From Halobacteria archaeon (GTDB taxonomy: Archaea; Methanobacteriota_B; Thermococci; Methanofastidiosales; NM3): a DNA stretch of 64,000 bases. Location: contig DAINBB010000003.1 of the NCBI GenBank assembly GCA_036733165.1, positions 7,546 to 71,545 of the forward strand, in the 5' to 3' direction. Under the pieces are notes generated by a model. It was not told where the DNA came from, made no database searches, and saw only the letters and a program-made list of their open reading frames with translations. The translations under genes and the position numbers were made by a program. Below are positions 6,141-59,100 of the stretch, in pieces (the first letter of the stretch is position 1; each line of letters starts with the position of its first letter).

Positions 6141-8083
6141 ATGAGAAGAAGGAAGAACCTATCCAGGTATCCGGCGGATGCGAGATAGGTGGCGTCTTGG
6201 AATGTGCCACCTGCAAGAGATGTTCGCTTGTCTGTCCGACAGAGCTTAACCTGGAAAAGGTCGTAAGGATCTCAAGATACCTCAGGGACCCGAAAGGATC
6301 CCACAGGAACATCTTCAAGATCACGTCGAAGCTCGCCGGAATGGCGGAGACACAGAGCTGGCTCAAGAACGGCGAGACAGGCACTGACATAGCATACTTC
6401 CCAGGTTGTTCAGCCCTCTTTGACATACTGTTGCAGAGGGACACCAACTACGCTGGTTCCGCCGAGGCGGCCGTGCTCGTATTGAACAAGCTAGGTTTCA
6501 AACCAGAAGTCATCTATGGCTGTTGCGGACATGACCTATATTACTCGGGTGCGCTCGATGAGTTCGAGACCGTCAAGAAAGAGATGATGAAGAAGGTCGA
6601 GGGCAAGAAGATAGTGGTCGGTTGTGCCGAATGCTACCATATGCTCAAGAACGTATATGGCATAGAGGATACGATACCTTTCGCAGAGTTCGTCCTTCAG
6701 CACAATCCGAAGTTCGAAAAGACCGACCTCAAGACCACCTACCACGACCCATGCAGGCTTGGCAGGTACAACAGCGTCTACGATGCTCCAAGGGAACTTC
6801 TGAAGAAGGCATCCGACTTCAGGGAGATGGAGAACATAAGGGAAGAGGCCATATGTTGTTCCGTTTCCGCCTGGCTCAACTGCAACAAGACGGCAAGGGA
6901 GGTCAGATTCAACAGGATCAAGGAAGCGAAGGCGACTGGCGCGGATTACCTTGTGACCGCATGCAACAAGTGTTCCATACATCTCGACTGTGTCCATTAC
7001 GAACTCAACAAGGAAGAGGTCGAGGAGCTCAGCGATATCAAGATAATGGGGCTTGAGGAGGTCGTCGGCTACGCCATGGGTGTCTATGACCCGTTCAAGG
7101 AGGAGAAGTCGTACGAGGTGCCGGAGATCACAGGCAAGTTCCTTGAACCGATCGAGATCGAGAAGGACCTTGAGAGATATATCGACGAGGAACTTGTCGA
7201 AGAGGCGTTCAAGTGCACGTCCTGCAAGAACTGCGCCATTGTATGCCCCGTGCATTACGATACCCCCGGAATGATGATGGAGGTATTCAGGCCGGAGCTT
7301 GTAAAGCGCGGCCACGGTCCTGAGAAACACGCGAAGATAGAGGGCGTCCTAAGGAAGACCGGAAATGCTTTCGGTGCGGAGGAAGGCGTAAAGACCAAAC
7401 TAAATCCAAAGGCAAAGTATGTATACTTCCCGGGATGCGTTGCTCAGTTCAGGCGCGATGACGTTTTCCAGGCAACGACCAAGATCTTGGACCTTCTCAA
7501 GATCGACTATGAGATACCAGAAGGGCTCGTATGTTGCGGTTCCGTCCTGAAGAGGACAGGTCACCCGATGGACTTCCTGATCGAGCAGAACATGAAGCTG
7601 CTCAAGGGCAAGCCCATAATCACATCCTGTTCAGGTTGTTATGCAACCTTGAAGAAGGACTATGAGGGCCTTGAGGTGTATCACATAACAGATATCATCA
7701 AGGAGAATCTGGACAAGCTTCCGCTGAAGGAGGTCAAGAAGAAGGTCATGTACCACGATCCTTGCCACCTTGGAAGGAAGTTCAGTTACTACGACATCCC
7801 AAGGGAGATAATCGAGGCCATTCCGGGCATTGAGCTCGTACCCTTCGACAAGGAGAAGGAGAACGCGCAATGTTGTGGTGCAGGTGGCGGGGTGAAGTCT
7901 GCGAAGCCAGACATCGCAAACAAACTTGCACAGAAGAAGATGGACGAGGCCAAGGAAAAGAAGGCCGACATGGTCGTATCATCATGTCCCTTCTGTGAGC
8001 TCAATCTTCAGGACAACAACAACGACATACCGGTGGTCGACATCCTGAATCTCCTTATGGAATCACTGGGGGTGGAAGCATGA
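6131..8083 (+). CDS. Internally duplicated HdrD-like protein: two consecutive [ferredoxin + CCG + CCG] units in one polypeptide
   Basis: Unit 1: CATCKRCSLVCP; YFPGC…CCGHD; HDPCRLG…ICCSVSAW. Unit 2: FKCTSCKNCAIVCP; YFPGC…VCCGS; HDPCHLGRKF…QCCGAGGGV. Confidence 0.75.
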   Translation: MSVDEKKEEPIQVSGGCEIGGVLECATCKRCSLVCPTELNLEKVVRISRYLRDPKGSHRNIFKITSKLAGMAETQSWLKNGETGTDIAYFPGCSALFDILLQRDTNYAGSAEAAVLVLNKLGFKPEVIYGCCGHDLYYSGALDEFETVKKEMMKKVEGKKIVVGCAECYHMLKNVYGIEDTIPFAEFVLQHNPKFEKTDLKTTYHDPCRLGRYNSVYDAPRELLKKASDFREMENIREEAICCSVSAWLNCNKTAREVRFNRIKEAKATGADYLVTACNKCSIHLDCVHYELNKEEVEELSDIKIMGLEEVVGYAMGVYDPFKEEKSYEVPEITGKFLEPIEIEKDLERYIDEELVEEAFKCTSCKNCAIVCPVHYDTPGMMMEVFRPELVKRGHGPEKHAKIEGVLRKTGNAFGAEEGVKTKLNPKAKYVYFPGCVAQFRRDDVFQATTKILDLLKIDYEIPEGLVCCGSVLKRTGHPMDFLIEQNMKLLKGKPIITSCSGCYATLKKDYEGLEVYHITDIIKENLDKLPLKEVKKKVMYHDPCHLGRKFSYYDIPREIIEAIPGIELVPFDKEKENAQCCGAGGGVKSAKPDIANKLAQKKMDEAKEKKADMVVSSCPFCELNLQDNNNDIPVVDILNLLMESLGVEA

Positions 8084-24091: not shown

Positions 24092-24166
24092 GCTCCGATA
24101 GTGTAGTCCGGTCAATCATCCAGCCCTCTCGAGGCTGAGACCCGGGTTCGAATCCCGGTCGGAGCA
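24092..24166 (+). tRNA. tRNA-Glu (anticodon CUC), no encoded CCA
   Basis: Cloverleaf by eye: acceptor GCUCCGA/UCGGAGC, anticodon stem CAGCC/GGCUG with loop CU-CUC-GA, T-arm CCGGGTTCGAATCCCGG. Close to the archaeal tRNA-Glu consensus. Confidence 0.85.
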
Positions 24167-25250: not shown

Positions 25251-25631
25251 ATGACCAAACTTACCAAGGAAGTAATCGATCTGCTCAATAAGGAACACCT
25301 TGTCTATGCCGCCACATCCTCAAAGGATGGTGTACCCAACGTGTCTCCGAAAGGCAGCATCACCGTGATCGACGAGGAAAAGCTTATTTTCGCTGAGATC
25401 GCATCCCCCCACACGATTGAGAACCTCAAGGCCAACCCCAAGATTTCCATGTACGTTCTGGACAGGGAATCGAACAAAGGATGCCAGATAAAGGGCACAT
25501 GCGTCTTGATGGATTCGGGCCCCATATTTGATAATGTGGCAAAGAAATTGAAGGAAATGATGCCCCAGCTTCCACCCACCAACTATGCGGTAATGGTGAA
25601 TGTTGAGGAGCTGTTCCCCTACAATCTATAA
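25251..25631 (+). CDS. Pyridoxamine 5'-phosphate oxidase-like FMN-binding split-barrel protein
   Basis: 126 aa from ATG 25251; VYAATSSKDGVPNVSPKGS pattern of the PNPOx-like family. Divergent from the ArsR gene. Confidence 0.6.
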   Translation: MTKLTKEVIDLLNKEHLVYAATSSKDGVPNVSPKGSITVIDEEKLIFAEIASPHTIENLKANPKISMYVLDRESNKGCQIKGTCVLMDSGPIFDNVAKKLKEMMPQLPPTNYAVMVNVEELFPYNL

Positions 25632-25634
25632 TTT

Positions 25635-26549
25635 TCACTCTCTTTTATTTTTTATCAGATACTCTGCTATTCCATATCCTTTCTTTCCATCATAGGTGTA
25701 TTCGGCAAGCGTTTCGTGCATTACGGACAATGTTTTCTTATCCTCGCTCATGAACGGCAGTTTGATGTTCTTGATGACCTTCGCGTCCACACTTCTTACT
25801 CTTCCCTCTGCGTCGGTCAGTTCCATCGTGAAGCTCTCCGGCGCACCATCGTCACCGAAGACGGTATCTATATTTGCGCCGATGATGGGGTGGTCTGTCC
25901 CATCTACATGGAAGAATCCAGCATCGACCTCCCCCTCGTCCACGATCAGTTTTGTGACGTTTAGGGCAAGCTTCTCTGAGAACTGCCCCGTCAACCATAT
26001 CCACATCCTGGGGGCGTTCCAGTCCCTGACCCCCCAACTGTGGTCCCTTTCCCCAAGACCATCGATCTCAAGGGTCTTTTCAAGCATCTCTATCTTCCCT
26101 GTGACCCTGCCAAACTGTTCGTAATGCTCAGACGCCACGGACCGGGACATCATTTCCTTGGGTCCGGTAACACATTTCCTGTAATCGAACATGTCGTTGA
26201 GGGCATTGAACTCTAGGTCGAGCTTCACGTCAATATATTCCAGAGTCTTGCACGAGACGACCTTCATGTCCCCTTCGTATGTCATCTTCCATCTCTTCTC
26301 TGCCTCAAGCTTCTCGTATTTCAATCCGTTTGTTTCCATCCCGTTGTGGTATATGTGCCCGTAGGCCCTCTTCCCTGCGACGATATGCGGGGTCGAGATG
26401 TAGCAGAACATGTTCTTCTCCTTTTTGTTGGGTCTCAACCCCATTCTCATGAATGCATAGGAATCATTGTCCTTATCATAAAAACTAAAATAGAAGCTCT
26501 CGTTCCATTCAGGTTCGCTGTTCGGTTCATGCAAAACATCTGTGTCCAT
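25635..26549 (-). CDS. Hypothetical protein (304 aa), translationally coupled downstream of the PEP-utilizing enzyme
   Basis: Start at MDTDVLHEPN (ATG 26547-26549) with GGAGTGA 8 nt upstream and only 4 nt after the upstream stop. No motif recognised. Confidence 0.5.
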   Translation of the reverse strand: MDTDVLHEPNSEPEWNESFYFSFYDKDNDSYAFMRMGLRPNKKEKNMFCYISTPHIVAGKRAYGHIYHNGMETNGLKYEKLEAEKRWKMTYEGDMKVVSCKTLEYIDVKLDLEFNALNDMFDYRKCVTGPKEMMSRSVASEHYEQFGRVTGKIEMLEKTLEIDGLGERDHSWGVRDWNAPRMWIWLTGQFSEKLALNVTKLIVDEGEVDAGFFHVDGTDHPIIGANIDTVFGDDGAPESFTMELTDAEGRVRSVDAKVIKNIKLPFMSEDKKTLSVMHETLAEYTYDGKKGYGIAEYLIKNKRE

Positions 26550-26553
26550 ATTA

Positions 26554-29187
26554 TCACTCCTCAAGATAAATAACTCCTTCATTACCGTCCAATGTGATCT
26601 TCTGCCCGTTCTTAAAAAAAGATGTTGCGTTCTTGACCGCGGTGACCGCCGGTATGCCATATTCCCTTGAGACCACGGCGCCATGTGAGAGTATTCCTCC
26701 CGTCTCCGTTATCAATCCGCCAAGTTTGGCGAAGATGGGCGTCCATCCCGGGTCCGTGTTCGAAGTGACCAGAATCTCGTCATCGTTGACAGATGGCAAC
26801 TGTTCGATGGATTCCACCACCCTTGCATATCCTGTGACTATGCCCGGGCTCGCCGATGTCCCTATGATCTTCACGACATCCTTGTCGTACATCACGGTGT
26901 CGTCGAACTCTGTCCTCCCCTTGAGGAACTTTGGTGGGAGCTTGTACCTGTTCTTCTCGAACTCCCCCCGTCTGGACTTTATGTGTCGTAGGGCGGCCCT
27001 GCTGCCACCGGCCGCGATTGAGAAGACCTCCTCCCTGGACAGAAAGAAAACGTCTTCAATAGAGTCTGTCAGTCCTTCTTCATGGAAGCGCCTGCCATAC
27101 TCGAGAAAGAGCCTTCTGGTCCTACAGAGGATGTGGTCGAGATAGAACCTCTGATTCTCCCTGAATATCAGGTATGTCTGAGCATATCTCAAAACGACAT
27201 TGAAGATTCTCTTCCTGAAGAAACCCATCGGCATCTTGCCAATCCTTTCGTCTATAAGTTTCTGGACCTCCAGTCTCTCCATTACATTTTTCTGCTCGAT
27301 CTCCTCAAAATCAATAGGTTGGGATCCAACAAGGGACCTGAGTATATCTATCACGAGACCTTGGTCCTCTGACCACCTTGGGAAGAGGATCTCCCTGGTA
27401 TGTGACCTATGGCCATATTCATCGATAAATCCCTGATAGTGCAGATATTGTGGTCTTCCCCTAAGTGTCTCGAGAAACTCTTCTTCTCCGCCATCTATCA
27501 AGGCCTTCGTCAAATCTTCGTCTTTCCTTATCATATCGGCAAGCCTGGCAATGGCCATGTTGGTCAATATCGTCTTGTTGTCTGGCAGGCCTGATATCAA
27601 CTTGGAGTACAGTTCGCCTGTTGAGTCGTCCAACCAATCCACCAACCATCTCTTGACCATAAGGTTGGTGCCTATGCTGTGGGTGACCATTCCGTACCTT
27701 ATCAGCCTGAAGTGCTTTAAGAATGCGCACTCCATGTAGTCGTACTGTGCCTTGAGCTCCTCGAAAGATAGCTTGCCGAGGTCCGTCCTGTCGTATGCCT
27801 CCATGGCGGCAAGAAAGTTCTCCGTCCATTCCCTGTATGCCTTGTCGGTCTTCATCATGCTTCCGTCAGGGTCTTTTAGCATGATCCTGATCTCTGCCCA
27901 GAGCCTTCTGAGGGTCTTCGTCTTGGCATTTGCGATCCTGTCCTGGTCCTTTATCGGAAAATAGTTGAGAAGTTCCTTTGTCCTTGAGAACCTTGGATTG
28001 AACGTGAACACTTCCTCAAGTACCTTTGAGTTGAAGTAGATGTGCCCCTTATGGAGCTTTAGTAGCTTAAGGTCCGTCAGTTCCTTGTATCCCATTATCT
28101 CGGAACCCTCATCGTTCACATACCTTGTGAGATAATGCCCAAGAAATGAAAAGAACAGCGGGGAAGTGGCATCGGCCCAGTATTCATCACCGTATGCCCT
28201 TGTCCACAATATATCCCCTCCGTCCCCGAGCGTTGTGATGGGGCGGGACTGAAGCAGCAGTATGGAACCATCCTCTATAGACCATTCTATGTCCTGCGGG
28301 CCGTCGAAATGATCCTCTATCCTCCTTCCAAAATCCAATAGTTCCATTATCTGCTCTTCCGATAGCGAGGATGACTCTTGTCTTCCTCGATCTATCGTTA
28401 CCGCTTCGTTTCCTGAATCGGAGAGGAATATGCCCCTTTCTTTCCTGTTGATCTTTTTCTCAACAATACTGCGACTTTCAAGGTCTATTACAAACCTGTC
28501 AGGGGTTACCAATCCAGATACTATCGACTCTCCCAGGCCCCAACTGGATTCGATGATGGCCCTTTTGCCGTTCTTGTCAACAGGGTCCCTGGTGAACATT
28601 ACGCCCGAGACATCGGAGTCCACCATCCTTTGGACGATGACTGCGACACCCCCCTCCGTGTGGGAAATGCCTGCGTAATGCCTGTACGACATGGCCCTCT
28701 CGTTCCAATATGATGCCCAACATCTCTTGATCGCACCCAGGACCGACTTGTCATCGACATTGAGAAATGTGTCCTGTTGTCCGGCAAAAGATGCTTCCGG
28801 AAGGTCCTCTGCGACAGCAGATGATCTTATGGCCCAAACTGTTCCGTCTGCAGATTCCCGTATCAGGCCCTCTATCTCATCTACGATACCTTTCCCGATG
28901 GCCGGAGCGGTGATCATCTCCCGTATGGCGTCCGAGCACATCTTTAGGGCGTTCTTGTCGTTCAGGTCGGCGTCCTGAAGCAAATCTGCTATTTTGCCGT
29001 CCAGGCCGTTTGACCCTATGAAGTCCAGGTACGCGTCCACTGTAACGACAAAGCCCCTGGGCACGGGGAATCCCCCTTCCAACAGCCTTATGAGATTGGC
29101 AGCCTTGCCCCCTACCTTGTTCAGGTCGCCCGATCTTGTTGTGTCAAGAGGTATACAATTGCTGTACATTCCATCACTTGCCAGCAT
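26554..29187 (-). CDS. PEP-utilizing enzyme with PPDK_N ATP-grasp N-terminal domain and C-terminal phosphohistidine swivel domain. It lacks the PEP/pyruvate-binding TIM-barrel domain, giving a rifampin-phosphotransferase-like architecture.
   Basis: N-terminus GGKAANLIRLLEGGFPVPRGFVVT (PPDK_N). Extreme C-terminus TSNTDPGWTPIFAKLGGLITETGGILSHGAVVSREYGIPAV (mobile His domain). 877 aa. Confidence 0.75.
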   Translation of the reverse strand: MLASDGMYSNCIPLDTTRSGDLNKVGGKAANLIRLLEGGFPVPRGFVVTVDAYLDFIGSNGLDGKIADLLQDADLNDKNALKMCSDAIREMITAPAIGKGIVDEIEGLIRESADGTVWAIRSSAVAEDLPEASFAGQQDTFLNVDDKSVLGAIKRCWASYWNERAMSYRHYAGISHTEGGVAVIVQRMVDSDVSGVMFTRDPVDKNGKRAIIESSWGLGESIVSGLVTPDRFVIDLESRSIVEKKINRKERGIFLSDSGNEAVTIDRGRQESSSLSEEQIMELLDFGRRIEDHFDGPQDIEWSIEDGSILLLQSRPITTLGDGGDILWTRAYGDEYWADATSPLFFSFLGHYLTRYVNDEGSEIMGYKELTDLKLLKLHKGHIYFNSKVLEEVFTFNPRFSRTKELLNYFPIKDQDRIANAKTKTLRRLWAEIRIMLKDPDGSMMKTDKAYREWTENFLAAMEAYDRTDLGKLSFEELKAQYDYMECAFLKHFRLIRYGMVTHSIGTNLMVKRWLVDWLDDSTGELYSKLISGLPDNKTILTNMAIARLADMIRKDEDLTKALIDGGEEEFLETLRGRPQYLHYQGFIDEYGHRSHTREILFPRWSEDQGLVIDILRSLVGSQPIDFEEIEQKNVMERLEVQKLIDERIGKMPMGFFRKRIFNVVLRYAQTYLIFRENQRFYLDHILCRTRRLFLEYGRRFHEEGLTDSIEDVFFLSREEVFSIAAGGSRAALRHIKSRRGEFEKNRYKLPPKFLKGRTEFDDTVMYDKDVVKIIGTSASPGIVTGYARVVESIEQLPSVNDDEILVTSNTDPGWTPIFAKLGGLITETGGILSHGAVVSREYGIPAVTAVKNATSFFKNGQKITLDGNEGVIYLEE

Positions 29188-29392: not shown

Positions 29393-30826
29393 TCATCTTG
29401 CCTCGTAGAAGGCCTTGAACCCTTTCTTTGTCATCCAGAGGTCTGCCTTTGATGCGATTTCGAAGGAAGAGTGCATGGACAATAGGGCAGGCCCGACGTC
29501 CACGACCTCCATGCCTAGGCGCGCCATGTACTTGGCTATCGTACCGCCGCCTCCCTCATCGACCTTTCCCAGTTCACCGGACTGCCAGACGATGTTGTTG
29601 TCGTTGAATATCTTCCTTATCTCTGAGACGAATTCGGCATTCGCATCGTTGGCCTCATATTTGCCGCTGGTACCGCTGTACTTTTGGATATAGAGGCCGT
29701 TCCCGAGCCTGGGTGCATTGTTCTCCTCGTGGACCTTTGGGAAGTTCGGATTCAGTGCGGCGCCGACATCGGAGGATATCGTCTTTCCGCCCATAAGGGC
29801 GTCCATAAGCTTCTGATTCGTTGTTTCACCCTGGATTGACATCATCTTAGACAGTGCCCAAGGGAAGAAGTTGCTTTGCATGGCGGTGTTGCCTTCGGAG
29901 TGGGTCTCCTCCTTGTCTGCCAGGAAGACTATCGATGTGTACTCCGGCACATCCATCTCCATCAAGGCCTTGAGCGAACAGAATACGCATATCCTGTCGT
30001 CCTGGCCATATGCGCCGATCATGCTCATGTCTATTCCGACATTCCTTGACTTTCCTGCCGGAACGGCCTCGATCTCCGCTGACACGAAGTCCTCTTCAGT
30101 TATGCCATACTTCTCATACAACAGCTTCAGCGCCATCATCTTTGTCTTCGTATCCATCTTCGTGTCCTTGTCTGGAATGCTTGAGAAGAGTATGTTAAGT
30201 TCCTCGCCCTTGATGACGTCCGGGGTCTTCCTTTCGTACTGGACCTTCTTGGACAGGTGTATCAGGATGTCGTTGACGGTGAACACGGGTTCGTCCTCGT
30301 TCTCGCCTATGGTGATGTCCACCCTGCTGCCGTCCCTTTTGTATACGACCCCGTGCAGTGCAAGGGGTATATTCGCGAAATGGTACTTCTTGATGCCGCC
30401 GTAGTAATGGGTCTTGAGCATTGCAAATTTCTTGGTCTCGATCAACGGATTTGGCTTGAGGTCAAGCCTTGGCGAGTCGACATGCGAGCCGATCATCCTG
30501 AATCCCTCGCTCAATGGCCTTTTTCCAATGACGAAGAGCACGATGTTCTTTTCCTTGTTCTTGACATATACCCTTTTTCCCGCCATTGTCCCTTTTCCAT
30601 CTTTCTTGAAAGATGCCTCGAGATCCTCTATTGGGACGAATCCGTCTTTTAGTGCCATCCTCTCGGAAAGTTCCACGACCTCCCTTTCGGTCTTTGCGTT
30701 ATCTATGAAGTCCCTGTACTCCCTTGAGAGCACTTCTATCTCATCTTTTTCGTCATCCCCTATGACGTTCCATACGGATTTCCTGTTCAACGTCAATTCC
30801 TCGTCAGTCAGCATAGAATTCCCCAC
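29393..30826 (-). CDS. M18-family aminopeptidase (aspartyl aminopeptidase-like)
   Basis: GSHVDSPRLDLKPNP (the AHTDSP-type motif), 477 aa. Confidence 0.7.
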   Translation of the reverse strand: MGNSMLTDEELTLNRKSVWNVIGDDEKDEIEVLSREYRDFIDNAKTEREVVELSERMALKDGFVPIEDLEASFKKDGKGTMAGKRVYVKNKEKNIVLFVIGKRPLSEGFRMIGSHVDSPRLDLKPNPLIETKKFAMLKTHYYGGIKKYHFANIPLALHGVVYKRDGSRVDITIGENEDEPVFTVNDILIHLSKKVQYERKTPDVIKGEELNILFSSIPDKDTKMDTKTKMMALKLLYEKYGITEEDFVSAEIEAVPAGKSRNVGIDMSMIGAYGQDDRICVFCSLKALMEMDVPEYTSIVFLADKEETHSEGNTAMQSNFFPWALSKMMSIQGETTNQKLMDALMGGKTISSDVGAALNPNFPKVHEENNAPRLGNGLYIQKYSGTSGKYEANDANAEFVSEIRKIFNDNNIVWQSGELGKVDEGGGGTIAKYMARLGMEVVDVGPALLSMHSSFEIASKADLWMTKKGFKAFYEAR

Positions 30827-30917
30827 GTTCGATAAACGATTGTAAATTTATAGCTTATTAGGGGGAGAAACCTTTTTAAAAACTTTGCATATCCCTTATA
30901 TAACGGCTGTGAAAATC

Positions 30918-31142
30918 ATGAAAGAGAAGGTAAAAGAAGTATTGGACAAGATTCGCCCAATGCTACAGGCGGATGGCGGGGATGTCGAACTTGTCGATGT
31001 CGATGAGGAGACAGGGAAGGTCATGGTGAAACTTACAGGTGCATGCGGCGGGTGTCCCATGTCCCAGATGACCTTGAAGTTCGGTATAGAGGCCGAACTG
31101 AAGAAGGAGATCCCAGAGGTCACGGAAGTAGTCAACCTTTGA
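30918..31142 (+). CDS. NifU-like (Nfu) Fe-S cluster scaffold domain protein
   Basis: LTGACGGCPMSQMTL CxxC motif of the NifU C-terminal domain; start set at ATG 30918. Confidence 0.7.
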   Translation: MKEKVKEVLDKIRPMLQADGGDVELVDVDEETGKVMVKLTGACGGCPMSQMTLKFGIEAELKKEIPEVTEVVNL

Positions 31143-31154
31143 TTTTTTGGATTT

Positions 31155-31481
31155 TTATTTTGATTCCTCTTTTTTTATACGCTTAGCTTCTGCCTTGATC
31201 CTCTTTTTCTCGATCTTGAGGCGTTCTTTCTCCGGTCCGTCGTCATTGTCAGTGATCAAGGTATTTTCTTCATTTTTTAGAATATGTTCACGATTGTGGC
31301 TATATGTCAGTAAAATCGCAATAAGCGCATATAGGCAAAGCCCCCCCACTATAACATAGACCATGCGTTCTGGAACTTCAGGATAGAATCTGGTAATCGC
31401 GAAAAATATAGATAACAATGCCAATGCGGCCCATGCATGATGCTTGTACCATCCGTAGCTTCTCTTTGCATCATCGCCCAT
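31155..31481 (-). CDS. Small membrane protein with a lysine-rich C-terminal tail (hypothetical)
   Basis: 108 aa, two TM helices. Confidence 0.4.
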   Translation of the reverse strand: MGDDAKRSYGWYKHHAWAALALLSIFFAITRFYPEVPERMVYVIVGGLCLYALIAILLTYSHNREHILKNEENTLITDNDDGPEKERLKIEKKRIKAEAKRIKKEESK

Positions 31482-31518: not shown

Positions 31519-32283
31519 CTACAGTTCCAGCTCCAGTGCAATGGGGCAATGGTCGCTGCCCATGACGTCAGAGAGCATGTAGGATGCCTTCACGTTGCCG
31601 ACAAGCCCCTTGCTGACATAGAAGTAGTCTAGCCTCCAACCGACGTTCCTTTCCCGTGCCCTTGTCTTGTAGTCCCACCAGCTGTAGTGTCCGCCTTCAT
31701 CGTTAAACAGTCTGAACGTGTCTACAAGCCCGTTCTCGATGAATCTGTCCAGCCATTCCCTCTCCTCTGGCAGGAATCCGGAGGCCATCTCGTTCTCTTT
31801 GGGTCTGGCGATGTCCTTTTCTGTGTGGGCGGTATTCACATCGCCGCATACCACCAAGTCCATCCCTTTTGACATCATGTCCTTGCACTGTTCGATGAAC
31901 ACCTTGTAAAAGTCCATTTTGTACTCCAGCCTCTCCTTGGACATCTTTCCGTTCGGAAAGTATATGTTCATAAGATGGAATCTGTCGTAATCGGCAACGA
32001 TTATCCTTCCTTCATCCTCGACATCACCGAAATAGAACGTTTTATTGACAGATGTTGGGGATTGCCTGGTGTATATCGCGACACCACTGTAACCTCTTCG
32101 CTCAGGATACGAGAAAATGGCATCATACCCTTCTATATATCTCAGGTCCAGGGGAAGCTGATCCTCATGGGACTTGGTCTCCTGGATGCAGAGGATGTCA
32201 GGCCCCACAGACCTGAACCATTCCAGAAATCCCTTCTTGTACACTGCCCTGAGGCCATTGACGTTCCATGAGACGATCTGCAT
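31519..32283 (-). CDS. xth: Exodeoxyribonuclease III (Xth/APE1 family)
   Basis: [13 protein letters not shown], …QETK…, SDHCP motifs; 254 aa. Confidence 0.85.
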
Positions 32284-32310: not shown

Positions 32311-32946
32311 TCAATCGACCTTCTTGTAGCAGAACCACCAGTCCTTGCACTCGAGGCTGTCGTCCTTGAGCCTTTTCTCCGCTTCCTCGACAGTGGTCGC
32401 GGGCGGAACTATGGCCCTGCCGCCTATGAACTCGTTGTTCGGCCAGTTGGCGGGCGCGGCAACCTTGTTCTTGTCCGTGAACTGGAGCGCCTTGACTATC
32501 CTCACTATCTCATCGAGGTTTCTTCCGATCTCCTGTGGATAGTATAGTATTACCCTTATTATGCTGTTCGGGTCTACAACGAACACCGCCCTGACGGTGT
32601 TGGAACCCTTGTTTGGATGAAGCATTCCAAGCATCTTTGAAAGTTTCCCATGGTCGGCGATAACTGGGAAAGGTATCTTTACACCAAGATTCTCTTCTAT
32701 CCATTGGACCCACATGATGTGTGAGAATACTTGGTCTATCGAGAGCCCTATTAGTTCACAGTTGAGCTCCTTGAGTTCAGGCGCCTTCTTTGCGAACCCT
32801 GCAAACTCGGTAGTGCATACTGGAGTGAAGTCACCTGGGTGACTAAAAAGGATGAACCATTTTCCCGAATATTCATTGGGAAGTATCTTCCTTCCCATGG
32901 TAGTTACCACCTTGACCTCCGGGAACTTATCCCCGATGAGGGGCAT
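32311..32946 (-). CDS. Peroxiredoxin (1-Cys/Prx6-type thiol peroxidase)
   Basis: [19 protein letters not shown] peroxidatic Cys motif; start set at [10 protein letters not shown]. Confidence 0.85.
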
Positions 32947-33085
32947 GCTTCTTTCTTCTTCACACATTTCAATACCTCTTTTGATTTGTGATAATCGTTA
33001 TGTTGGGGGATTATAATAATTTTTTTCAGAAAAGCATTAAAAACTTGTAGAAAATATGAATACAAAGAAAAAAAGGAGGTATCTC

Positions 33086-33202
33086 ATGACGAAGGTAGGA
33101 GAAAAGTACATCTGCGACATATGCGGAAACGAGGTCGAGGTCGTCAAGGCCGGAGGCGGGACGCTTGTATGTTGCGGAGTAAAGATGAGACTTACAGATT
33201 AA
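33086..33202 (+). CDS. dsr: Desulforedoxin (37 aa), absent from the ORF track
   Basis: MTKVGEKYICDICGNEVEVVKAGGGTLVCCGVKMRLTD with the CxxC…GGGTLVCCG desulforedoxin signature. RBS GGAGGT 6 nt upstream. Confidence 0.7.
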   Translation: MTKVGEKYICDICGNEVEVVKAGGGTLVCCGVKMRLTD

Positions 33203-33208
33203 TCTGAG

Positions 33209-33225
33209 TCCATGCCCTGCATGGA
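33209..33225 (+). other. Short hairpin TCCATG-ccctg-CATGGA followed by a C/T-rich tract between dsr and fprA
   Basis: 6-bp inverted repeat read from sequence. Confidence 0.25.
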
Positions 33226-33251
33226 CCCTTCCCTTTTCAAGGGGGATCCCA

Positions 33252-34442
33252 ATGAACAAAATAGAGTTGAAGAACGGTATATACTGGGTCGGGGCTATAG
33301 ATTGGAATCTCCGCGATTTCCACGGATACAAAACGCCGAACGGGTCTACATATAATGCATATCTCGTAGTTGGCGAGAAGATTGCATTGATAGACACGGT
33401 GAAGAGACCTTTTCTGAACGACCTTGTTGAAAACATCAGGAACATAGTGGAACCTGAGAAGATCGATTATCTTATAGTAAACCATGTCGAGATGGACCAT
33501 TCAGGTTCATTCCCGGAGATCGTGAAACTGCTCAAGAACGCCCGCATTGTCGCCACCAAGGAGGGCAAGGAGGAACTTTTGAAGCACCACGGCAAGGATT
33601 ATGACATAACGGTCGTGGAGGACGGTGACACGATATCCCTGGGCAACAAGACCCTCAGATTCATAAAGACTCCGATGCTGCATTGGCCCGACTCGATGAT
33701 GACATATGTCCAGGAGGACAAGGTGATATTTACTTCGGACGCCTTTGGCCAACATTACGCCTCCACAGAAAGGTTCGACGACGAGCTTGACGAGAAGACG
33801 CTCTATGACGCGGCTGGGGAATACTATTCCAACATACTTTGGCTCTACAGCCCGCTTGTATCACGCCTGATCGAGAAGGTGATGGACATGGGCATCAAGC
33901 TGGAGATGGTGGCACCCGACCATGGCATAATATGGAGAAACGACCCGCATAAACCCATAAACTGGTATTGCGAGTGGGCAAATGGAAAGTCTGTGAACAA
34001 GGTGTTGCTGGTATATGAAACGATGTGGGGCTCCACGGAAAAGATGGCCAGGGCGATAGCCAAGGGAATAACAGACCAGGGAATGAACGTCAAGCTGATG
34101 AAGCTTAAGGAGACCGAATACAGCTACGTGATCAAGGAACTGCTCGGGTGCAGAGGCATACTTGTGGGCACACCTACCCTCAACAACAACATGTTCCCCT
34201 CCATGGGCGGTTTTCTGACATATCTTAAAGGGCTCAGGCCAAAGGGAAGGATAGGAGCGACCTTTGGTTCCTATGGCTGGGGCGGCGGTGCGTGCAAGGC
34301 CGCGGAGGAGATGCTGGACGAGGCGGGTGTCAGGATAGCGTTCCCGCCACTGGAGCTTAAATGGGTCCCTACGGCCGAAGAGCTCGAGGACTGTTACACC
34401 TTTGGAAAGGAGTTTGCATCTAAAGCTATGGAGAAGATATAG
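33252..34442 (+). CDS. fprA: Flavodiiron protein FprA (metallo-beta-lactamase-like diiron domain + flavodoxin domain)
   Basis: HVEMDHSGS (HxExDH) motif plus a C-terminal flavodoxin-like domain; 396 aa. Confidence 0.85.
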   Translation: MNKIELKNGIYWVGAIDWNLRDFHGYKTPNGSTYNAYLVVGEKIALIDTVKRPFLNDLVENIRNIVEPEKIDYLIVNHVEMDHSGSFPEIVKLLKNARIVATKEGKEELLKHHGKDYDITVVEDGDTISLGNKTLRFIKTPMLHWPDSMMTYVQEDKVIFTSDAFGQHYASTERFDDELDEKTLYDAAGEYYSNILWLYSPLVSRLIEKVMDMGIKLEMVAPDHGIIWRNDPHKPINWYCEWANGKSVNKVLLVYETMWGSTEKMARAIAKGITDQGMNVKLMKLKETEYSYVIKELLGCRGILVGTPTLNNNMFPSMGGFLTYLKGLRPKGRIGATFGSYGWGGGACKAAEEMLDEAGVRIAFPPLELKWVPTAEELEDCYTFGKEFASKAMEKI

Positions 34443-35342
34443 TTGGAGAAACAGGATCTTAAGAATGAGGCATGGAAGAAGGTCGGCACAAAGTTTGCAC
34501 ATATAACAAGTGTCCATCCATGCTACAATGAGGATGCGCATCACAAAAACGCCAGGATACACCTCCCAGTGGCCCCGAAATGCAACATCCAATGCAGATT
34601 CTGCAGCAGGGGTCTGGACAAGTGTGCCAATCGGCCTGGCGCCTATTCCCACCTATTGAGCCCCGAGGGGGCTGTGGAACGGGTCAGGGAGGCGAAGAAG
34701 AAGTATAGGACGCTCCGGGTGGTCGGAATAGCGGGCCCGGGCGAACCATTGTTCAACCTCGAGACGTTCGAGACATTGTCAATGGTTGACAAGGCGTTCC
34801 CGAAACTATACAAGTGCATAGCCACCAACGGCCTCCTATTGCCAAAGAAAGTGGACATCCTCAAGAGCAACAACGTCGGCAGCGTCACCGTGACGGTGAA
34901 CGGCCTGGACCCGGATGTCGTTTCACAGATAGTGTCATGGGTGGTGTACGAGGGCAAGCTGTACAAGGACGAAAGGGGCGCCGAGAAGCTGATAGAGAAT
35001 CAGCTTGAAGGGATCGAAAAGGCCGTTAATGCGGGAATGGTGGTGAAGGTCAACACGGTCCTCATACCTTCCATCAACATGGACGAGGTAGAGATGATAG
35101 CAAAGACCGCATCCGAGCTTGGCGCATGGATAATGAACATCATCCCACTGATACCGCTCAACGATTTCTCAGACATGGAACCGCCGGGTTGCGATGACCT
35201 CAAGAGGGCAAGGCAGATGGCCGAGAAGCATATAAATCAGTTCAGGCTCTGCAAACAGTGCAGGGCGGATTCCTGCGGCGTTCCGGGAAAAGAGGACCAT
35301 TCAATACCAAGGACCTGCGCATCAGAATATTTCCATGGGTGA
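34443..35342 (+). CDS. NifB-like radical SAM protein (minimal NifB, no NifX domain), apparent TTG start abutting the fprA stop
   Basis: HPCYNEDAHHKNARIHLPVAPKCNIQCRFCSRGLDKCANRPG is nearly the NifB signature (HPCY…AHH…ARMH…VAP.[21 protein letters not shown]). There is no in-frame ATG before this motif. Confidence 0.7.
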   Translation: MEKQDLKNEAWKKVGTKFAHITSVHPCYNEDAHHKNARIHLPVAPKCNIQCRFCSRGLDKCANRPGAYSHLLSPEGAVERVREAKKKYRTLRVVGIAGPGEPLFNLETFETLSMVDKAFPKLYKCIATNGLLLPKKVDILKSNNVGSVTVTVNGLDPDVVSQIVSWVVYEGKLYKDERGAEKLIENQLEGIEKAVNAGMVVKVNTVLIPSINMDEVEMIAKTASELGAWIMNIIPLIPLNDFSDMEPPGCDDLKRARQMAEKHINQFRLCKQCRADSCGVPGKEDHSIPRTCASEYFHG

Positions 35343-35348
35343 TCCGGC

Positions 35349-37685
35349 ATGGAAGGGAGGTTCCATCTCGAGGGAATACACTGTGCAGGGTGTGTGAAGA
35401 AGATAGAGGATGCACTAAGGTCCCTTGATGGCGTGAAAGATGTGGCCATCAACCTTGCATCCAATTCTGGAACAGTCGATTACGATGAATCCGTTGTAGA
35501 CGGCAGGACGATATCGGCGAAGATATCCTCTCTGGGTTACAAGGTGAAGCTCGAGAGCGTCGTGGTGGACATAGTGGGCATGCACTGCGCCAACTGCGCG
35601 CTCGGTCTTGAGAAGGCCCTGGGCGGCACCGACGGCGTATCCAGTGCAAATGTGAACTTCAACACTGGCAGGGCGTTTGTCACCTACGACCCCTTGGCGT
35701 TCGATGCGGGGCTTATCAACGATATAGTTGAGAAGAGGGGGTACAAGGTCGCCTCAAGGGAGAAGACCGACGAGAAGGAAAGCAATCCGTATCTGAGGAC
35801 GTTCATCTTTACCTTGCTGCTCGCAGTTCCTGTCATATTCATCACCCACTTCACCGAGTTTGACAACAGGCCCATCGTGCTTTTCCTTTTGACAACGCCG
35901 ATACAGTTTATCTCGGGCTTTACATTCTACAGAAGCGCCCTCTACTCTCTCAAGGGTGGTAGCGCCAACATGGATGTCCTCGTGATGCTTGGGACATCTG
36001 CGGCATACTTCTATTCGGTGGGGACGACGTTCTTCTTCGAAGGCCCACTGTTCTTTGAGACCACCGCAATGCTCCTTTCGTTCATACTGCTGGGAAAACT
36101 GCTTGAGACATACGCCAAGGGTAGAACCTCCCAGGCCCTAAAGAAGCTGATGGCACTGCAGGTCAAGTTCGCACTGGTCGAACGCGACGGAAGACAGATA
36201 GAGGTGCCCATAGACTTCGTGAAGGAGGGAGACATAACGATAGTGAGGCCAGGGGAACGCGTGCCCGTGGACGGCATCGTCACTGAAGGGTATTCGACGG
36301 TGGACGAGTCCATGATAACGGGCGAGTCGATACCCAGGGAGAAGGTCGGGGGCGATGATGTCATAGGGGGCACCATAAACGGCAATGGCCTTCTGAAGGT
36401 AAGGGCCACCAAGGTGGGGGCGGATGCCATGCTATCCCAGATAATATCGTTTGTCGAGAAGACCCAGGGCACCAAGCCGCCCATACAAAGGTTCGCCGAC
36501 AGGGTGTCATCCTATTTCGTCCCGGCGATCATCATCATCGGCCTGACCACCTTCGCATTGTGGTATCTCGTCCTTGACGAGACATTCGTCTTCTCGCTGA
36601 CCAGGATGATAGCCGTGCTTGTCGTGGCGTGCCCATGCGCGCTGGGCCTTGCGACACCCACGGCCATTGCGGTCGGCACGGGTGTGGGGGCGAACAACGG
36701 CATCCTGATAAAGAGCGGCGAGGCGCTTGAGAAGGTCCAGGACGTCGACACGGTAGTGTTCGACAAGACGGGGACCCTGACCAGGGGAACGCCGGAGGTC
36801 ACTGACTACACATCCATGGATGTGCTCAGGTACGCTGCCAGCATTGAAAAGGGGTCTACGCATCCCCTTGCCGAGGCCATCGCCTCAAAGGCGGAGCAAG
36901 AGGGCATAGAACTGGCCGGCGTTGAAAAGCTGAACACGATCCCTGGAAGGGGCATCGAGGCCGAGATGGGCGGCAAGAGGTACCTTTTAGGCAATTCATC
37001 ATTATTGAAGGACAATCATATCCCGTTCAGGGAGGAGGGGGCCATACTTCTTGAAAACAGGGGAAACACCGTTGTGCACCTGGCAAGGGAGGGCGAGTAT
37101 CTGGGACATGTGGCTTTGGCAGACACGGTAAAGGACAATGCGCCCCGGGCGGTTGCAGACCTTCGCAGGAGGGGCATATCCGTATGGATGATCACGGGGG
37201 ACAATGAGAACACGGCCAGGGCCATATCACATCAGCTTGGCATAGACAACTTCATGTCCAACATACTTCCAAAGGACAAGGCGCTCAAGATAAAGGAGCT
37301 TCAGGACGGCGGAAAGAAGGTCGCGATGGTCGGCGACGGCATCAACGACGCGCCCGCCCTGATACAGGCGGACGCGGGGATAGCCATCGGCTCCGGTTCC
37401 GAGATAGCCATAGAATCCGGAGAGATAATACTGGTCGGTGACGACATAGGCGATGTCAACGTCTCCTTGTCCCTGTCCAAGAGCATATATTCGAAGATAA
37501 TGCAGAACATGTTCTGGGCGCTGTTCTACAATTCCCTGATGATCCCCATCGCCGCAGGGCTACTGTCGGGTCATGGCATAAACATGAGGCCCGAGCTGGC
37601 GGCGCTCGCCATGTCAATGTCCTCCGTGTCTGTGGTTTCCAACTCCCTTTTGTTAAGAAGATTTAAAATGAAGGATTCAGATTAG
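35349..37685 (+). CDS. copA: Cu+-translocating P1B-type ATPase CopA with two N-terminal HMA domains
   Basis: GIHCAGC and GMHCANC metal-binding sites; CPC, DKTGTLT, HP and [10 protein letters not shown] motifs. Confidence 0.9.
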
Positions 37686-37705: not shown

Positions 37706-38200
37706 ATGAGCAACCCCCTTGATCTGGCCATAAAGACCGAAAAGGACGGTATAGCGTTCTATAAGAAAGAAGCCGAAAAGAGTGGCGATGAAATGGGAAG
37801 GAAGATGTTCCTTTCATTCGTTGAGGATGAGAAGCGGCACCTTGAGATACTTCAAAAGATGTCATGCAAGGAACATGTCTGCATATCCGACATTGAGAAC
37901 TACAGTCCGAAAAAGAACCTCAAGACCATATTCTCTGAGATGAAGGAAGAGGAAAGGAAGGGTTCCATCGACACCTCGACGGACATTGGGGCGCTTGAGT
38001 TGGCCATGGAGATGGAAAGGATGGGCTATGACCAATACATGGAGGCAGCGAAGATGGAAAAGGACGAGGAACACAAGAGGATATACATGAAGCTTGCCCA
38101 GGAGGAGAAGGAGCACTTTGACCTTCTGCAGGAGGCAAGGAGCTATCTTGAAGACACAGGGAACTGGTACATGTGGTACGAGCACAAGTTCCCGACATAG
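37706..38200 (+). CDS. Ferritin-like diiron protein (rubrerythrin family, no rubredoxin domain)
   Basis: Two ExxH motifs (EDEKRH, EEKEH) in a four-helix pattern; RBS GGAGGT upstream. Confidence 0.6.
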   Translation: MSNPLDLAIKTEKDGIAFYKKEAEKSGDEMGRKMFLSFVEDEKRHLEILQKMSCKEHVCISDIENYSPKKNLKTIFSEMKEEERKGSIDTSTDIGALELAMEMERMGYDQYMEAAKMEKDEEHKRIYMKLAQEEKEHFDLLQEARSYLEDTGNWYMWYEHKFPT

Positions 38201-38319: not shown

Positions 38320-38808
38320 GTGCTATGGGTGACATATACTGTTAAGGACATACTCAACATTGCCGTAAGGTCCGAAGAGGAGGCGGAACTGTACTATTCC
38401 CGCCTGGGCGACAAGACCGAAAATGTATTTTTTAAAGAAAAGTTACGGCAGCTATCGGCAGAGGAGAAGGGACACAAGGCCGTGATACTCTCATTGATGG
38501 GTGAACAAGGCGTGAATGTTGCCATAAGTGAGGAGAAGGCCGTATCCCTGGAGCTGCCTTCCCTGACGTTCGACGACTCAAAGCCCATGTCCTTGCTCAT
38601 AGAGGCGGCCATGGATGCAGAGAATGCGGCAAGGGTCTTTTACAAGACATTGTCGGAGAGTGTCGAGGAAGGACGCGAACGTGCGATGTTGGAGTACCTT
38701 GCATCGTTTGAAGCGTCCCATTATCACATGCTGGAGGCCGAGATGGCGGCCATCAAGCATTTCGAGGACTACGATGAGTTCAACGAGATGATGCATGTGG
38801 GGCCCTAA
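38320..38808 (+). CDS. Ferritin-like diiron protein, paralog of the upstream gene
   Basis: EEKGHKAV and EASHYHMLE ExxH motifs; GTG start (alternative GTG at 38329). Confidence 0.55.
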   Translation: MLWVTYTVKDILNIAVRSEEEAELYYSRLGDKTENVFFKEKLRQLSAEEKGHKAVILSLMGEQGVNVAISEEKAVSLELPSLTFDDSKPMSLLIEAAMDAENAARVFYKTLSESVEEGRERAMLEYLASFEASHYHMLEAEMAAIKHFEDYDEFNEMMHVGP

Positions 38809-55910: not shown

Positions 55911-56159
55911 TTTTGCTTTTTTCTTCAATTGAATTTTAGTATTTACAATGTAGTAATTGCATTATTTCCTTATTTTTTTTATTTTACAGTAAAACCACTG
56001 CAAAAAGTATTTAAAGGAAAAGTTACATTAAATGCCTATATAGCTATACGGAGTGTTGGAGCGTGAACATGTTCGAAAAAGTAATCCAATTAGTTAATGG
56101 TATATTTACACACGATTCTGATACAGATTTTGTCAATGATAAGTATGGTTGGAGGTTTA

Positions 56160-59100
56160 ATGATGCGACCTGTATATAAGAAGGGAATTTCGATATTATT
56201 TGGAATATTGATCGTTATGAGCCTCGTCTACATCAACGTCGGCTCCACCCGTGCGGCATCTGCCATCACTGGCGCTACTGATGCCGTTTGGTACGACACG
56301 GACGGAAATGGGGTCTTCGATGCTGGAGAGGGGATTGGGAACATCAATGTTTATCTGGACAATTCAGGGGTGGTAGTTGCAACAACGGATGCCAACGGTT
56401 CCTTCCCTGATGTGTTCGCAACCGCTGATTCAGACCTTGATTGGGATGGAGAGCACTATCTAACATTCAAGGCTGATGGTTTCAGGACTGTGACATACAA
56501 TGTCAGCAACGTTGCTGGGGTATATGCTCTTCCGGCAGGGTCGGTCCAGATGGTCACCCAGGACAGCATTTACGGAAGGGTGGTCGACGACGACGGACAA
56601 CCGGTGGCGGGCATCACCATCGAGGCATTGGTGTATGGCACAGGCATCGTGGCCACCGATGTTGTCGGGGGAACGGCCCAGACGGTCACTGATCAGTACG
56701 GTAATTATGTTATAAAGGGATTGCCGGCGGCCACTTACGACATAAGGTCCAAGAAGGCCGAGTACATAACCCAGATCCTGACCGGTGTGAAGGTCGTTTA
56801 CGGCAAGACAACGGAGAACGTCAACTTCACGATGGTGCCTAACTACGGGTCCATCACGGGTCATGTGACAGACGGCGCGACGCCGATACAGGGCGCTGTC
56901 GTCTCCATACCAGGCCTTGGACTATCCGCCGTCACGGACTCGAACGGACAGTACACCATAACGGATGTAATGCCGGGCAGCTACACGATGATATGTGAGA
57001 AGGACGGTTACAAGATATGTGTTCTATACTATAATGACACTGGATCGTCCTATGCTTGCAACCCTGCCGACTATTCGCCATTCGTCCAACCAGGTCCGTC
57101 CGTGACACCTGTCTCTGCAGACTTCAACCTGGAGCCTGAACCGCTGACACCGGTGAATGGATACATCTCAGGTCTCCTCACTGATGAGGACGGGACCCCG
57201 ATAGAATGCGCATATGTGACAATTCCGGGGCTGGGAATGGAAGTGTGCACTGACAAGGGCGGCTACTACATATTCGAGGAAGTTCCCAACGGGGAGTACG
57301 ATGTGTTGGCCCAGGACCCCAATCCAACCACGGGGACCTTGGAACACAAGTCGGCGAAGGCGAGAATTGATGTGATACAGGGCGAGAACTCAGATGCCGA
57401 CTTTTCACTGGACAACAACACGGGTTTCATCGTTGGACAGATATATGATAAGGATGCATTGCCCGTCAGCGGCGCGTCTGTGACCATACCGAACTCCACA
57501 ATATCCTCACTTACCGACCTGAACGGCTGGTATGCCCTTGAGGATGTCGATGTGTGCAGGTATTCCGTATATGACTACACTGCGGAAACGATCACCTACG
57601 TAGTGGCCAATGTTGTCGTAAAGGCATCAAATTCGGACTACAACTCCAACACGCTGATAGTGGAGCCCATACCTGCGAACGGTTCGTACTATAATACATA
57701 TAATATTAATATATTCAAGAAAACTGGCGTCATCAAGGGACAGGTCTATGAAGTAGGGACCGGACAGCCTATCGAGAACGCTAGGGTCAGGGTCTACGGC
57801 AGGGAGGCCATCACCGACGAGAGTGGCGTTTACGAGTTCGTAGGCGTCCCTGTGGGAAGTTACACTGTCGTCGCAGGTGAGGGCCCTGAACAGACATACA
57901 CCGAGACGACCTATGACATAGTCATAGCGACCAACGTGACCGTAGGATCAAATGCGCAGACGATGAAGAACTTCTATCTCCCTGACGACACCAGCTCGCT
58001 CTACGGATACGTATCTGGCATATTATACGATGATGTCAACGGGAGCTCGGGCTTCTCTGAAGGCGAGGGTCTCTCTGGCGTCACCGTTGAGATACCTGGA
58101 TACTCCATTGTGGAGACCGATGACTTCGGATTCTATATAGTCTCAGCCGATGCCGGTGACCATTATCAGGTCATATACGGCGACGACTACGAGTGGGTGA
58201 ACAACGGGCTTGTCACATTCACAAGCGATGTTGAGGATCCGGGCAACGACCTTGAACTTGTCAGGAAGACCGGAGAGCTTATAGGAAACGTTAGCGAGGA
58301 CGGCGCGCCTGTCGAGAGTGCCGAGCTGTGGGTTCCCCAATATGACAACGATTGGGAAGAGGGGTCCACATCGGTAGTACAGGTGACATCCGACGCATAT
58401 GGTAACTACGCCTTCGCAGATTCCTATTCATTGGAGAAGGGCAGACATCTTCTCGTAGTCCAGAGATGGGACGACGGAAACATGTCATTCGAGTTCGACT
58501 TATCATTCGTCAACATAGCATCGACCGTTACCAAGAACGTGTCCCTAACACGTGAGACGGGACGCGTCGAGGGTTACGCATGGGACGACCTCGATGGCGA
58601 TGGCCTCAAGGACGTTAGCGAGCCATACCTTCCGGACGTGGAAGTGTCTCTCTCGAAGGTTTACTCGACGATGACAGACAGCACGGGTTACTACACGATA
58701 TTGGACGTGCCTGTCACCTTGGACAGGTCGACCACACATCCGACACCCGCATACGAGATAAACAGGTACACCGGCATAGCCTACCTTACAGGTTATGACA
58801 CCGAGACCTACGTCATCGATCCGCCTGTGGCTGCCGATCCGGAGATATACGATCACACGAGCATTGCCACAGTAGAATACGTGGACTGCAACAACATAGC
58901 GATATTTGAGGACATATCACTCTCAGATGTCACGACAAACATCGACTATCCCTTGGACAAGGCCGACCCTCTGCCAGTGACAGGGTCCGTGTCGGGCTAT
59001 GTGAACCTTGACATGAATCTGATAAATGCAGAGGCCGAGGTCTGGATAGAGGGCACGAACATGAACACATGGTCGGACATCGAAGGATTCTGGATAATCC

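Follow-up and report, generated by a model that had tools for sequence, protein, structure and literature searches.

A stand-alone desulforedoxin encoded beside a class A flavodiiron protein in Candidatus Methanofastidiosa: a genuine gene and a candidate electron donor

The 64-kb stretch of Candidatus Methanofastidiosa DNA analysed here (contig DAINBB010000003.1; hereafter the window) carries, at positions 33086-33202 of the plus strand, a very short open reading frame (ORF) upstream of a gene for a flavodiiron protein (FDP) of the FprA family. We find that this ORF is a genuine gene under strong purifying selection, and that its product is a bona fide stand-alone desulforedoxin (Dx) by profile, ligand spacing, length and predicted fold. 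On its own, the gene is an ordinary, uncharacterised and already annotated addition to a family known from Desulfovibrio gigas; the useful part is its context. The linkage of Dx to FDP genes is real and recurrent, yet Dx is a general member of clusters for defence against oxygen and reactive oxygen species (O2/ROS) and not an FDP-specific accessory. As the best explanation overall we consider a functional stand-alone Dx that would act as a rubredoxin-like electron donor to the adjacent FDP within an O2/ROS-defence row, a view on which our confidence is evenly balanced.

Results

The ORF encodes a genuine stand-alone desulforedoxin

The ORF comprises 117 nt, from an ATG at 33086 to a TAA stop codon at 33200-33202, and specifies a protein of 38 amino acids (38 codons plus stop), MTKVGEKYICDICGNEVEVVKAGGGTLVCCGVKMRLTD. 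The initial annotation, made from the sequence alone, had the position exactly right and the length, given as 37 codons, wrong by one. The strong ribosome-binding site described with it is likewise present as a Shine-Dalgarno-like GGAGGT at 33075-33080 (plus strand), although the spacer before the ATG, atctc, measures 5 nt instead of 6. The Dx signature recognised at that time (CxxC…GGGTLVCCG) is borne out: the FeS4 ligands C10, C13, C29 and C30 follow the pattern C10-x2-C13, x15, C29-C30, with the last two residing in GGGTLVCCG, and all four cysteines are invariant in alignments. Their spacing agrees with the published ligand definition for Dx, CXXCX15CC (PMC3116461).

Profile searches confirmed the proposed family. 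The match to Pfam PF06397 reached 54.1 bits (cut-off 23) and took in positions 1-35 of the 36-position profile; NCBIfam TIGR00319 gave 44.4 bits (cut-off 36.05), while TIGR00320, the model for full desulfoferrodoxin, scored only 37 bits (cut-off 146.9). The best sequence match in the PDB was D. gigas desulforedoxin (1cfw/1dxg, E 1e-7), with N-terminal desulfoferrodoxin domains ranking next. An AlphaFold model with eight homologues as input reached a pLDDT of 91.5 and found its best structural match in 1DXG, with TM scores of 0.93/0.98 and an rmsd of 0.4 Å over 36 columns. Like D. gigas desulforedoxin (1DXG/1CFW), to which it is 47-49% identical and on which its predicted fold superposes this closely, the window protein is a stand-alone chain of ~36-38 residues with C-x2-C-x15-C-C ligands and the GGGTLVCCG motif. 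It differs in its archaeal host, in the position of its gene directly upstream of an FDP gene, and in its net charge, which, as counted from the sequences, is roughly neutral compared to the acidic D. gigas protein. In fused form, this FeS4 domain (PF06397) is part of the O2/ROS-detoxifying proteins desulfoferrodoxin (a 2Fe-superoxide reductase; 1DFX, 2JI1) and desulforubrerythrin, a context that matches the window; here, however, Dx is a separate gene, and its neighbour is an FDP rather than a superoxide reductase (SOR) or a rubrerythrin.

Selection and signals were assessed in a Methanofastidiosales-type set of six orthologues (the window, L001, L002, L005, L006 and L085). They share the start position, as ATG, GTG or TTG, keep the four cysteines, and all carry Shine-Dalgarno-like motifs (GGAGG/GGGGTG/AGAGGTG) 5-8 nt 5' of the start. 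Values of dN range from 0.04 to 0.17 with saturated dS, and omega, where computable, from 0.05 to 0.12. An in-frame upstream extension (33056-33085, plus strand) would yield a 48-residue ORF from an ATG at 33056, which is used by some gene callers (P0001/P0138) and which was the query of our homologous-protein search. We rejected this longer reading because the extension is absent from the orthologues, whose starts and Shine-Dalgarno-like motifs align with 33086; the extension is probably untranslated.

An ORF as short as this, below the usual gene-calling cut-offs, might be a chance ORF, or, with Dx domains best known as the N-terminus of desulfoferrodoxin, the decaying remnant of a split desulfoferrodoxin gene. 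However, it covers the full length of the PF06397 profile, and such stand-alone proteins, mostly short, form about 1530 clusters at 50% identity. Downstream of the stop codon we saw neither an SOR-domain remnant nor a frameshift, which the initial annotation had named as the mark of a remnant; instead, the FDP gene begins 49 nt on. Since selection, start, Shine-Dalgarno-like motif and cysteines are maintained across the six orthologues and nothing SOR-like follows the stop, we reject both readings, which are effectively refuted and retain a vanishingly small probability.

The gene had been taken to be unannotated, but a protein identical to the 38-residue product is already present in GenBank (HPR41238.1/HOP09560.1), from a Candidatus Methanofastidiosa metagenome-assembled genome (MAG), as a 'desulfoferrodoxin FeS4 iron-binding domain-containing protein', and the adjoining entry HPR41239.1 ("FprA family A-type flavoprotein") is the window FDP. 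Orthologues in other MAGs bear the same annotation; JGI labels some of them "superoxide reductase", which overstates the capability of a lone Dx domain. In public clustering at 90% identity, the representative of the cluster with the window Dx is an unrelated 459-residue E1-like adenylyltransferase, a database clustering artefact. A fusion of Dx to the 459-residue E1-like proteins of this cluster (P0133/P0136) was accordingly discarded, as they contain no Dx segment.

Desulforedoxin genes recur beside flavodiiron protein genes

As the initial annotation stated, Dx lies upstream of fprA, and it does so directly; fprA is here a gene for a two-domain class A FDP at 33252-34442. The conservation of the pair in related genomes, put forward there as a check, is evident: every Methanofastidiosales relative examined (L001, L002/L003, L005, L006, L085/L086) has the order Dx, FDP, radical SAM protein, usually continued by a Cu-ATPase and a rubrerythrin, and the pair recurs in unrelated lineages. 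In a complete Methanomassiliicoccales genome (L004) the order is reversed to FDP-Dx, with a gap of about 21 bp and amid unrelated housekeeping genes; the same reversed order is found on a short, Methanomassiliicoccales-like metagenome contig (L095). At L013, L020, L022, L037, L041 and L052, mostly from Nitrospirota, Dx and FDP are immediate same-strand neighbours with no rubredoxin between them, and at two of these loci (L013 and L052) no other defence gene, neither SOR nor rubrerythrin, occurs within 3 kb of the pair. A neighbour-joining tree, confined to the FDPs of the loci, two Bathyarchaeia-like ones, Moorella FprA and rubredoxin:oxygen oxidoreductase (ROO), places the Dx-adjacent FDPs in three well-separated groups, from Methanofastidiosales, Nitrospirota and Methanomassiliicoccales.

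For a wider view, GTDB species representatives were scanned with a Dx alignment, which returned at least 529 Dx-encoding loci. The best 80 were used for a neighbour survey, about 85 loci in total, in which all ORFs within 3 kb of Dx were clustered and the clusters confirmed with Pfam. The surveyed Dx loci are mostly stand-alone genes for proteins of 36-45 residues, hosted by uncultured Dehalococcoidia, Nitrospirota, Omnitrophota, bacteria of the candidate phyla radiation, Bathyarchaeia, Methanoperedens and Methanosarcinales. At 19 of the 80 species-level loci a credible FDP gene lies no more than 5 kb from Dx, in every case on the same strand. Within 3 kb, the commonest neighbour of stand-alone Dx is 1Fe-SOR (25 loci); the two genes invariably share a strand, with a median gap of 26 bp, and amount to a split desulfoferrodoxin. 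FDP comes second (18 loci, window included), again without exception on the strand of Dx, which lies on either side; the pairing is thus not the unusual one implied when desulfoferrodoxin was initially contrasted with it as the customary partner. Less frequent are peroxiredoxin (15 loci), rubrerythrin with its own rubredoxin-like domain (11), FMN reductase-like proteins and SufBC (7 each), Fur/PerR (6), and Fe/Mn superoxide dismutase and glutaredoxin (5 each).

We found no FDP-Dx fusion. P0115 (459 residues), which had looked like an FDP fusion, owes its extra residues to a mis-called N-terminal start, and they form neither a Dx nor a rubredoxin domain. Dehalococcoidia FDPs located 3-5 kb from Dx were excluded from the count of Dx-dependent pairs because they carry their own N-terminal canonical rubredoxin domain. 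In these genomes (L021, L027, L032, L036, L045, L063) an operon Dx-rubrerythrin-SufC-SufB ends in an FDP gene ~3-5 kb downstream; the rubredoxin domain (CTVCGY...DDWVCPVCG) lies just upstream of the latter, apparently in frame, and would make it an N-terminal rubredoxin-FDP. A close relative of the window Dx, P0007, is encoded between a rubredoxin-domain protein and a rubrerythrin and not beside an FDP.

The flavodiiron protein resembles rubredoxin-dependent enzymes

The FDP (396 residues, plus strand; Pfam ODP, Lactamase_B and Flavodoxin_1) consists of the two core domains only, metallo-beta-lactamase-like diiron and flavodoxin, and with no extra domains belongs to class A. Its diiron-ligand motifs, HVEMDH (78), LHWPD (143), SDAFGQH (162) and PDHG (222), are intact, and its full-length alignment with Moorella thermoacetica FprA (1YCF) shows 46% identity. 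Among the solved structures, Moorella FprA also gave the highest score (421 bits), followed by D. gigas ROO (357 bits), the core of E. coli flavorubredoxin (about 337 bits) and the F420H2 oxidases 6FRM (335 bits) and 2OHH (322 bits). In this test of closest similarity, a ranking of scores only, the window FDP thus stands nearer to the rubredoxin-dependent FDPs. F420 use is reported to be confined to one FprA clade (PMC8518648), and the score ranking suggests that the window FDP falls outside it.

Two incomplete Methanofastidiosa MAGs are covered by Zhang et al. 2020 (Table S2), with entries for CofC, CofD and, in one MAG, CofE, and none for CofG, CofH, FrhA, FpoF, Mtd or Mer. Because the latter are absent from the published MAGs, a supply of F420H2 in this lineage appears unlikely; with CofG/H absent but CofC/D/E present, the F420 argument is only partly informative.

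The gene row contains further candidate acceptors

Immediately at the FDP stop codon, a gene for a NifB-like radical SAM protein begins (34443-35342, plus strand; 299 residues; Pfam Radical_SAM; NCBIfam NifB 272 bits, below the 344 cut-off), and its place between FDP and Cu-ATPase is kept throughout Methanofastidiosales (L001, L002, L006, L085, L086). The Cu-type P1B ATPase that follows (35349-37685, plus strand; 778 residues) contains HMA domains, and its orthologues carry HMA, E1-E2_ATPase and Hydrolase. The next gene, at 37706-38200 (plus strand), encodes a rubrerythrin-family diiron protein of 164 residues (PF02915, 44 bits) without CxxC...CxxC and is kept after CopA in L002, L085 and L086; it is succeeded at 38320-38808 (plus strand) by a second rubrerythrin-family protein (162 residues; PF02915, 58 bits), again without a rubredoxin motif. 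Without a rubredoxin domain, these two tandem proteins would have to receive their electrons from another protein, and Dx is a candidate donor. A motif scan of the 64-kb window detected neither a rubredoxin-type motif nor a further one for Dx.

Upstream, and divergent from Dx, lies a gene for a 1-Cys peroxiredoxin of 218 residues (32311-32967, minus strand; Pfam AhpC-TSA and 1-cysPrx_C; NF009668, 350 bits vs 211), which occupies the same position in L002, L005 and L085. Beyond it are genes for an exonuclease III-like protein (31519-32283, minus strand), a 108-residue membrane protein (31155-31481, minus strand), NifU (30885-31142, plus strand; ~2 kb upstream of Dx) and an M18 aminopeptidase (29393-30826, minus strand).

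The divergent intergenic region between peroxiredoxin and Dx (32968-33085, 118 nt) contains an A/T-rich, TATA-like tract, ATTATAATAATTTTTTT, at 33010-33026, and we presume that it holds the promoters of both genes; our promoter and terminator scan uses bacterial-type signals and the host is archaeal, so that the assignment goes no further than this presumption. Just past the Dx stop codon lies a hairpin of 8 bp (33208-33226, plus strand) that leads into a C/T-rich tract and could partly terminate or attenuate transcription between Dx and FDP; its fold z-score of -1.56 against shuffles is not significant, and the orthologues do not share its sequence. The ribosome-binding site of the FDP gene is overlapped by another small hairpin. 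The spacer between the two genes measures 49 nt in the window, and those of the orthologues are T-rich and TATA-like. Co-transcription of Dx and FDP is possible.

Discussion

How could a protein of this size serve the neighbouring enzyme? By homology, we infer that Dx is a dimer in which each chain holds one distorted FeS4 centre on C10, C13, C29 and C30, and which would shuttle single electrons at roughly 0 mV. Its gene is the first of an O2/ROS-defence row that continues with FDP, the NifB-like radical SAM protein, the Cu-ATPase and the two rubrerythrin-like proteins without rubredoxin domain. Reduced Dx would take the part that rubredoxin plays in Desulfovibrio, Moorella and Clostridium, docking near the flavin mononucleotide (FMN) of the FDP homodimer and delivering electrons one by one. 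From the FMN, electrons would cross to the diiron site of the partner monomer, for the reduction of O2 to water or of NO to N2O. The rubrerythrin-like peroxidases encoded downstream may likewise receive electrons from Dx.

SOR, FDP and rubrerythrin are the classical rubredoxin acceptors, as established in the Desulfovibrio, Clostridium and Pyrococcus systems, and the recurrence of Dx beside these same three proteins supports the view of it as a rubredoxin substitute. The redox potentials are alike, with about 0 mV for Dx-type centres and -50 to +50 mV for rubredoxins, and in desulforubrerythrin a Dx domain is fused, as an electron-transfer module, to a diiron peroxidase (PMC7482061); a Dx-rubrerythrin fusion of this type is also encoded at L061. 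Rubredoxin-dependent class A systems (D. gigas ROO, 1E5D; Moorella FprA, 1YCF) resemble the window in that a gene for a small FeS4 carrier lies beside that for a two-domain FDP. They differ in the carrier, which here is Dx, with its adjacent Cys-Cys pair and different fold, and in that no NADH:rubredoxin oxidoreductase-like gene is linked in the window. Since the window FDP resembles rubredoxin-dependent FDPs and no rubredoxin is encoded nearby, it is reasonable to regard Dx as the donor. That Dx reduces this FDP in place of rubredoxin or F420H2, as the initial annotation proposed, is in our view a plausible and testable hypothesis, which we place only slightly on the doubtful side. The broader proposal, that Dx and class A FDP form a dedicated two-gene O2/NO-reductase module with Dx as physiological donor in at least three lineages (Methanofastidiosales, Methanomassiliicoccales and Nitrospirota), is more tentative and, on balance, one we lean against.

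A number of observations weigh against Dx as the donor of the FDP. The strongest comes from Methanobacteriota, where FprA clusters with rubrerythrin and rubredoxin, yet oxidises F420H2 directly (PMC13135261). Adjacency alone is therefore weak evidence, because the rubredoxin in those clusters adjoins an F420H2-using FprA without being used by it. Like the window, these clusters constitute a methanogen O2-defence set, in which FDP, rubrerythrin-family proteins and a small FeS4 protein are often joined by a peroxiredoxin (PMC13135261); they combine rubredoxin with direct F420H2 oxidation, whereas the window FDP scores lower against F420H2 oxidases and its lineage appears to be without FO synthase and F420-reducing enzymes. 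We found no Dx-FDP link and no Dx-to-FDP transfer in the literature searched. A review-type introduction names only three kinds of FDP donor, namely rubredoxins, NAD(P)H oxidoreductases and, as deazaflavin cofactor, F420H2, and the extra domains of the published FDP classes are rubredoxin-type, not Dx (PMC6033852). Further, the clade placement of the window FDP is a matter of bit-score ranking, and the retention of CofC/D/E in Methanofastidiosa MAGs makes F420 from scavenged FO conceivable. The genomic pattern is ambiguous as well: Dx is promiscuous, with 1Fe-SOR, and not FDP, as its commonest neighbour and peroxiredoxin and rubrerythrin also frequent, and about half of the Dx loci have no SOR, FDP or rubrerythrin nearby. 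Clusters L029 and L082 contain rubredoxin in addition to Dx, and the nearest FDP relatives outside the order, which are Bathyarchaeia-like and about 55% identical, occur as OsmC-FDP with no Dx. No conserved Dx reductase was found beside the Dx-FDP pairs, whose flanking genes are heterogeneous and include those for a multihaem cytochrome-like protein, an ABC1 kinase-like protein and, in L004 only, a Pyr_redox_2/dim protein. Finally, given the hairpin in the window and the TATA-like spacers of the orthologues, Dx and FDP may be transcribed separately.

Alternatively, Dx could serve the oxidative-stress regulon at large as a rubredoxin-type carrier, the general part that it appears to play from the presence of SOR, rubrerythrin and peroxiredoxin beside stand-alone Dx. 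Its adjacency to FDP would then reflect only the co-location and co-regulation of defence genes; its acceptors would be the rubrerythrins without rubredoxin domain, two of which are encoded in the same row, or an SOR elsewhere, while the FDP would be fed by F420H2 or another donor. The Methanobacteriota precedent, the preponderance of SOR among the Dx neighbours, the CofC/D/E genes and the possible separate transcription signals all speak for this view. It accounts less well for the isolated Dx-FDP pairs without nearby SOR or rubrerythrin (L004, L013, L052), for the survival of the pair through inversions of gene order, for an FDP that scores nearer to rubredoxin-dependent enzymes than to F420H2 oxidases, and for the lack of CofG/H and all known F420 reductases in the published Methanofastidiosa MAGs. 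We rate it as a serious contender, though a doubtful one.

A role in metal handling has also to be considered, with Dx as a small Cys4 protein that binds Fe, Cu or Zn and acts as chaperone, buffer or sensor for the products of the NifU, NifB-like radical SAM, HMA and Cu-ATPase genes. The Cys4 site of Dx accepts other metals in vitro, the row includes the NifB-like protein and the Cu-ATPase, with NifU 2 kb upstream, and orthologous rows add a separate HMA protein. This linkage to Cu-ATPase and radical SAM genes, however, is seen only in Methanofastidiosales, whereas across phyla the recurrent neighbours of Dx are redox enzymes (SOR, FDP, rubrerythrin) and not metal transporters, and in sequence and modelled fold the protein is indistinguishable from the redox protein. 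We consider a role in metal handling very unlikely.

Stand-alone Dx is widespread in uncultured anaerobes and lies repeatedly within O2/ROS-defence clusters. Compact Dx-FDP pairs, such as that of the window and the isolated pair of L004, are easy targets for biochemistry on the long-unsettled physiological role of Dx, and could reveal how O2 is detoxified in methyl-reducing methanogens without an obvious F420H2 supply. If Dx and FDP do form a dedicated module, this would provide the first defined physiological partner for a stand-alone desulforedoxin, and a third route for powering methanogen FprA, one that suits methyl-reducing lineages without F420-reducing enzymes.

Additional observations

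Several features of the surveyed loci and of the window are recorded here in their own right. In a Dissulfurispiraceae MAG (L037, positions 1-2500), Dx is encoded between two FDP genes, together with a 159-residue protein that has a C-terminal rubredoxin-like motif; the same 159-residue protein precedes Dx in L092-L094. Tandem Dx domains occur in proteins of 73-196 residues (P0141 and P0143 with two repeats, P0194 and P0258 with four), and some of the repeats have altered cysteine patterns; we know of no description of such proteins. In L002 ('Methanomicrobia archaeon', GCA_004212155.1), a heliorhodopsin gene (438-1229) is located ~4 kb upstream of the Dx-FDP row.

Within the window, an Hdr/Mvh-type row on the plus strand (60-8083) encodes an HdrA-like flavoprotein, MvhD (FlpD), CCG-domain HdrB/C-like proteins and an HdrA-MvhD fusion, which fits a methyl-reducing methanogen. 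An Rfam scan of the window returned one tRNA only, at 24092-24166 (plus strand), and nothing near the Dx locus; the region around 25.3-26.6 kb (25300-26600) holds only short, odd-looking ORFs. At 56097-62531 (plus strand), a protein of 2144 residues is encoded that consists of many CarboxypepD_reg/SdrD_B/SpaA-type repeats and is probably a surface or cell-envelope protein.

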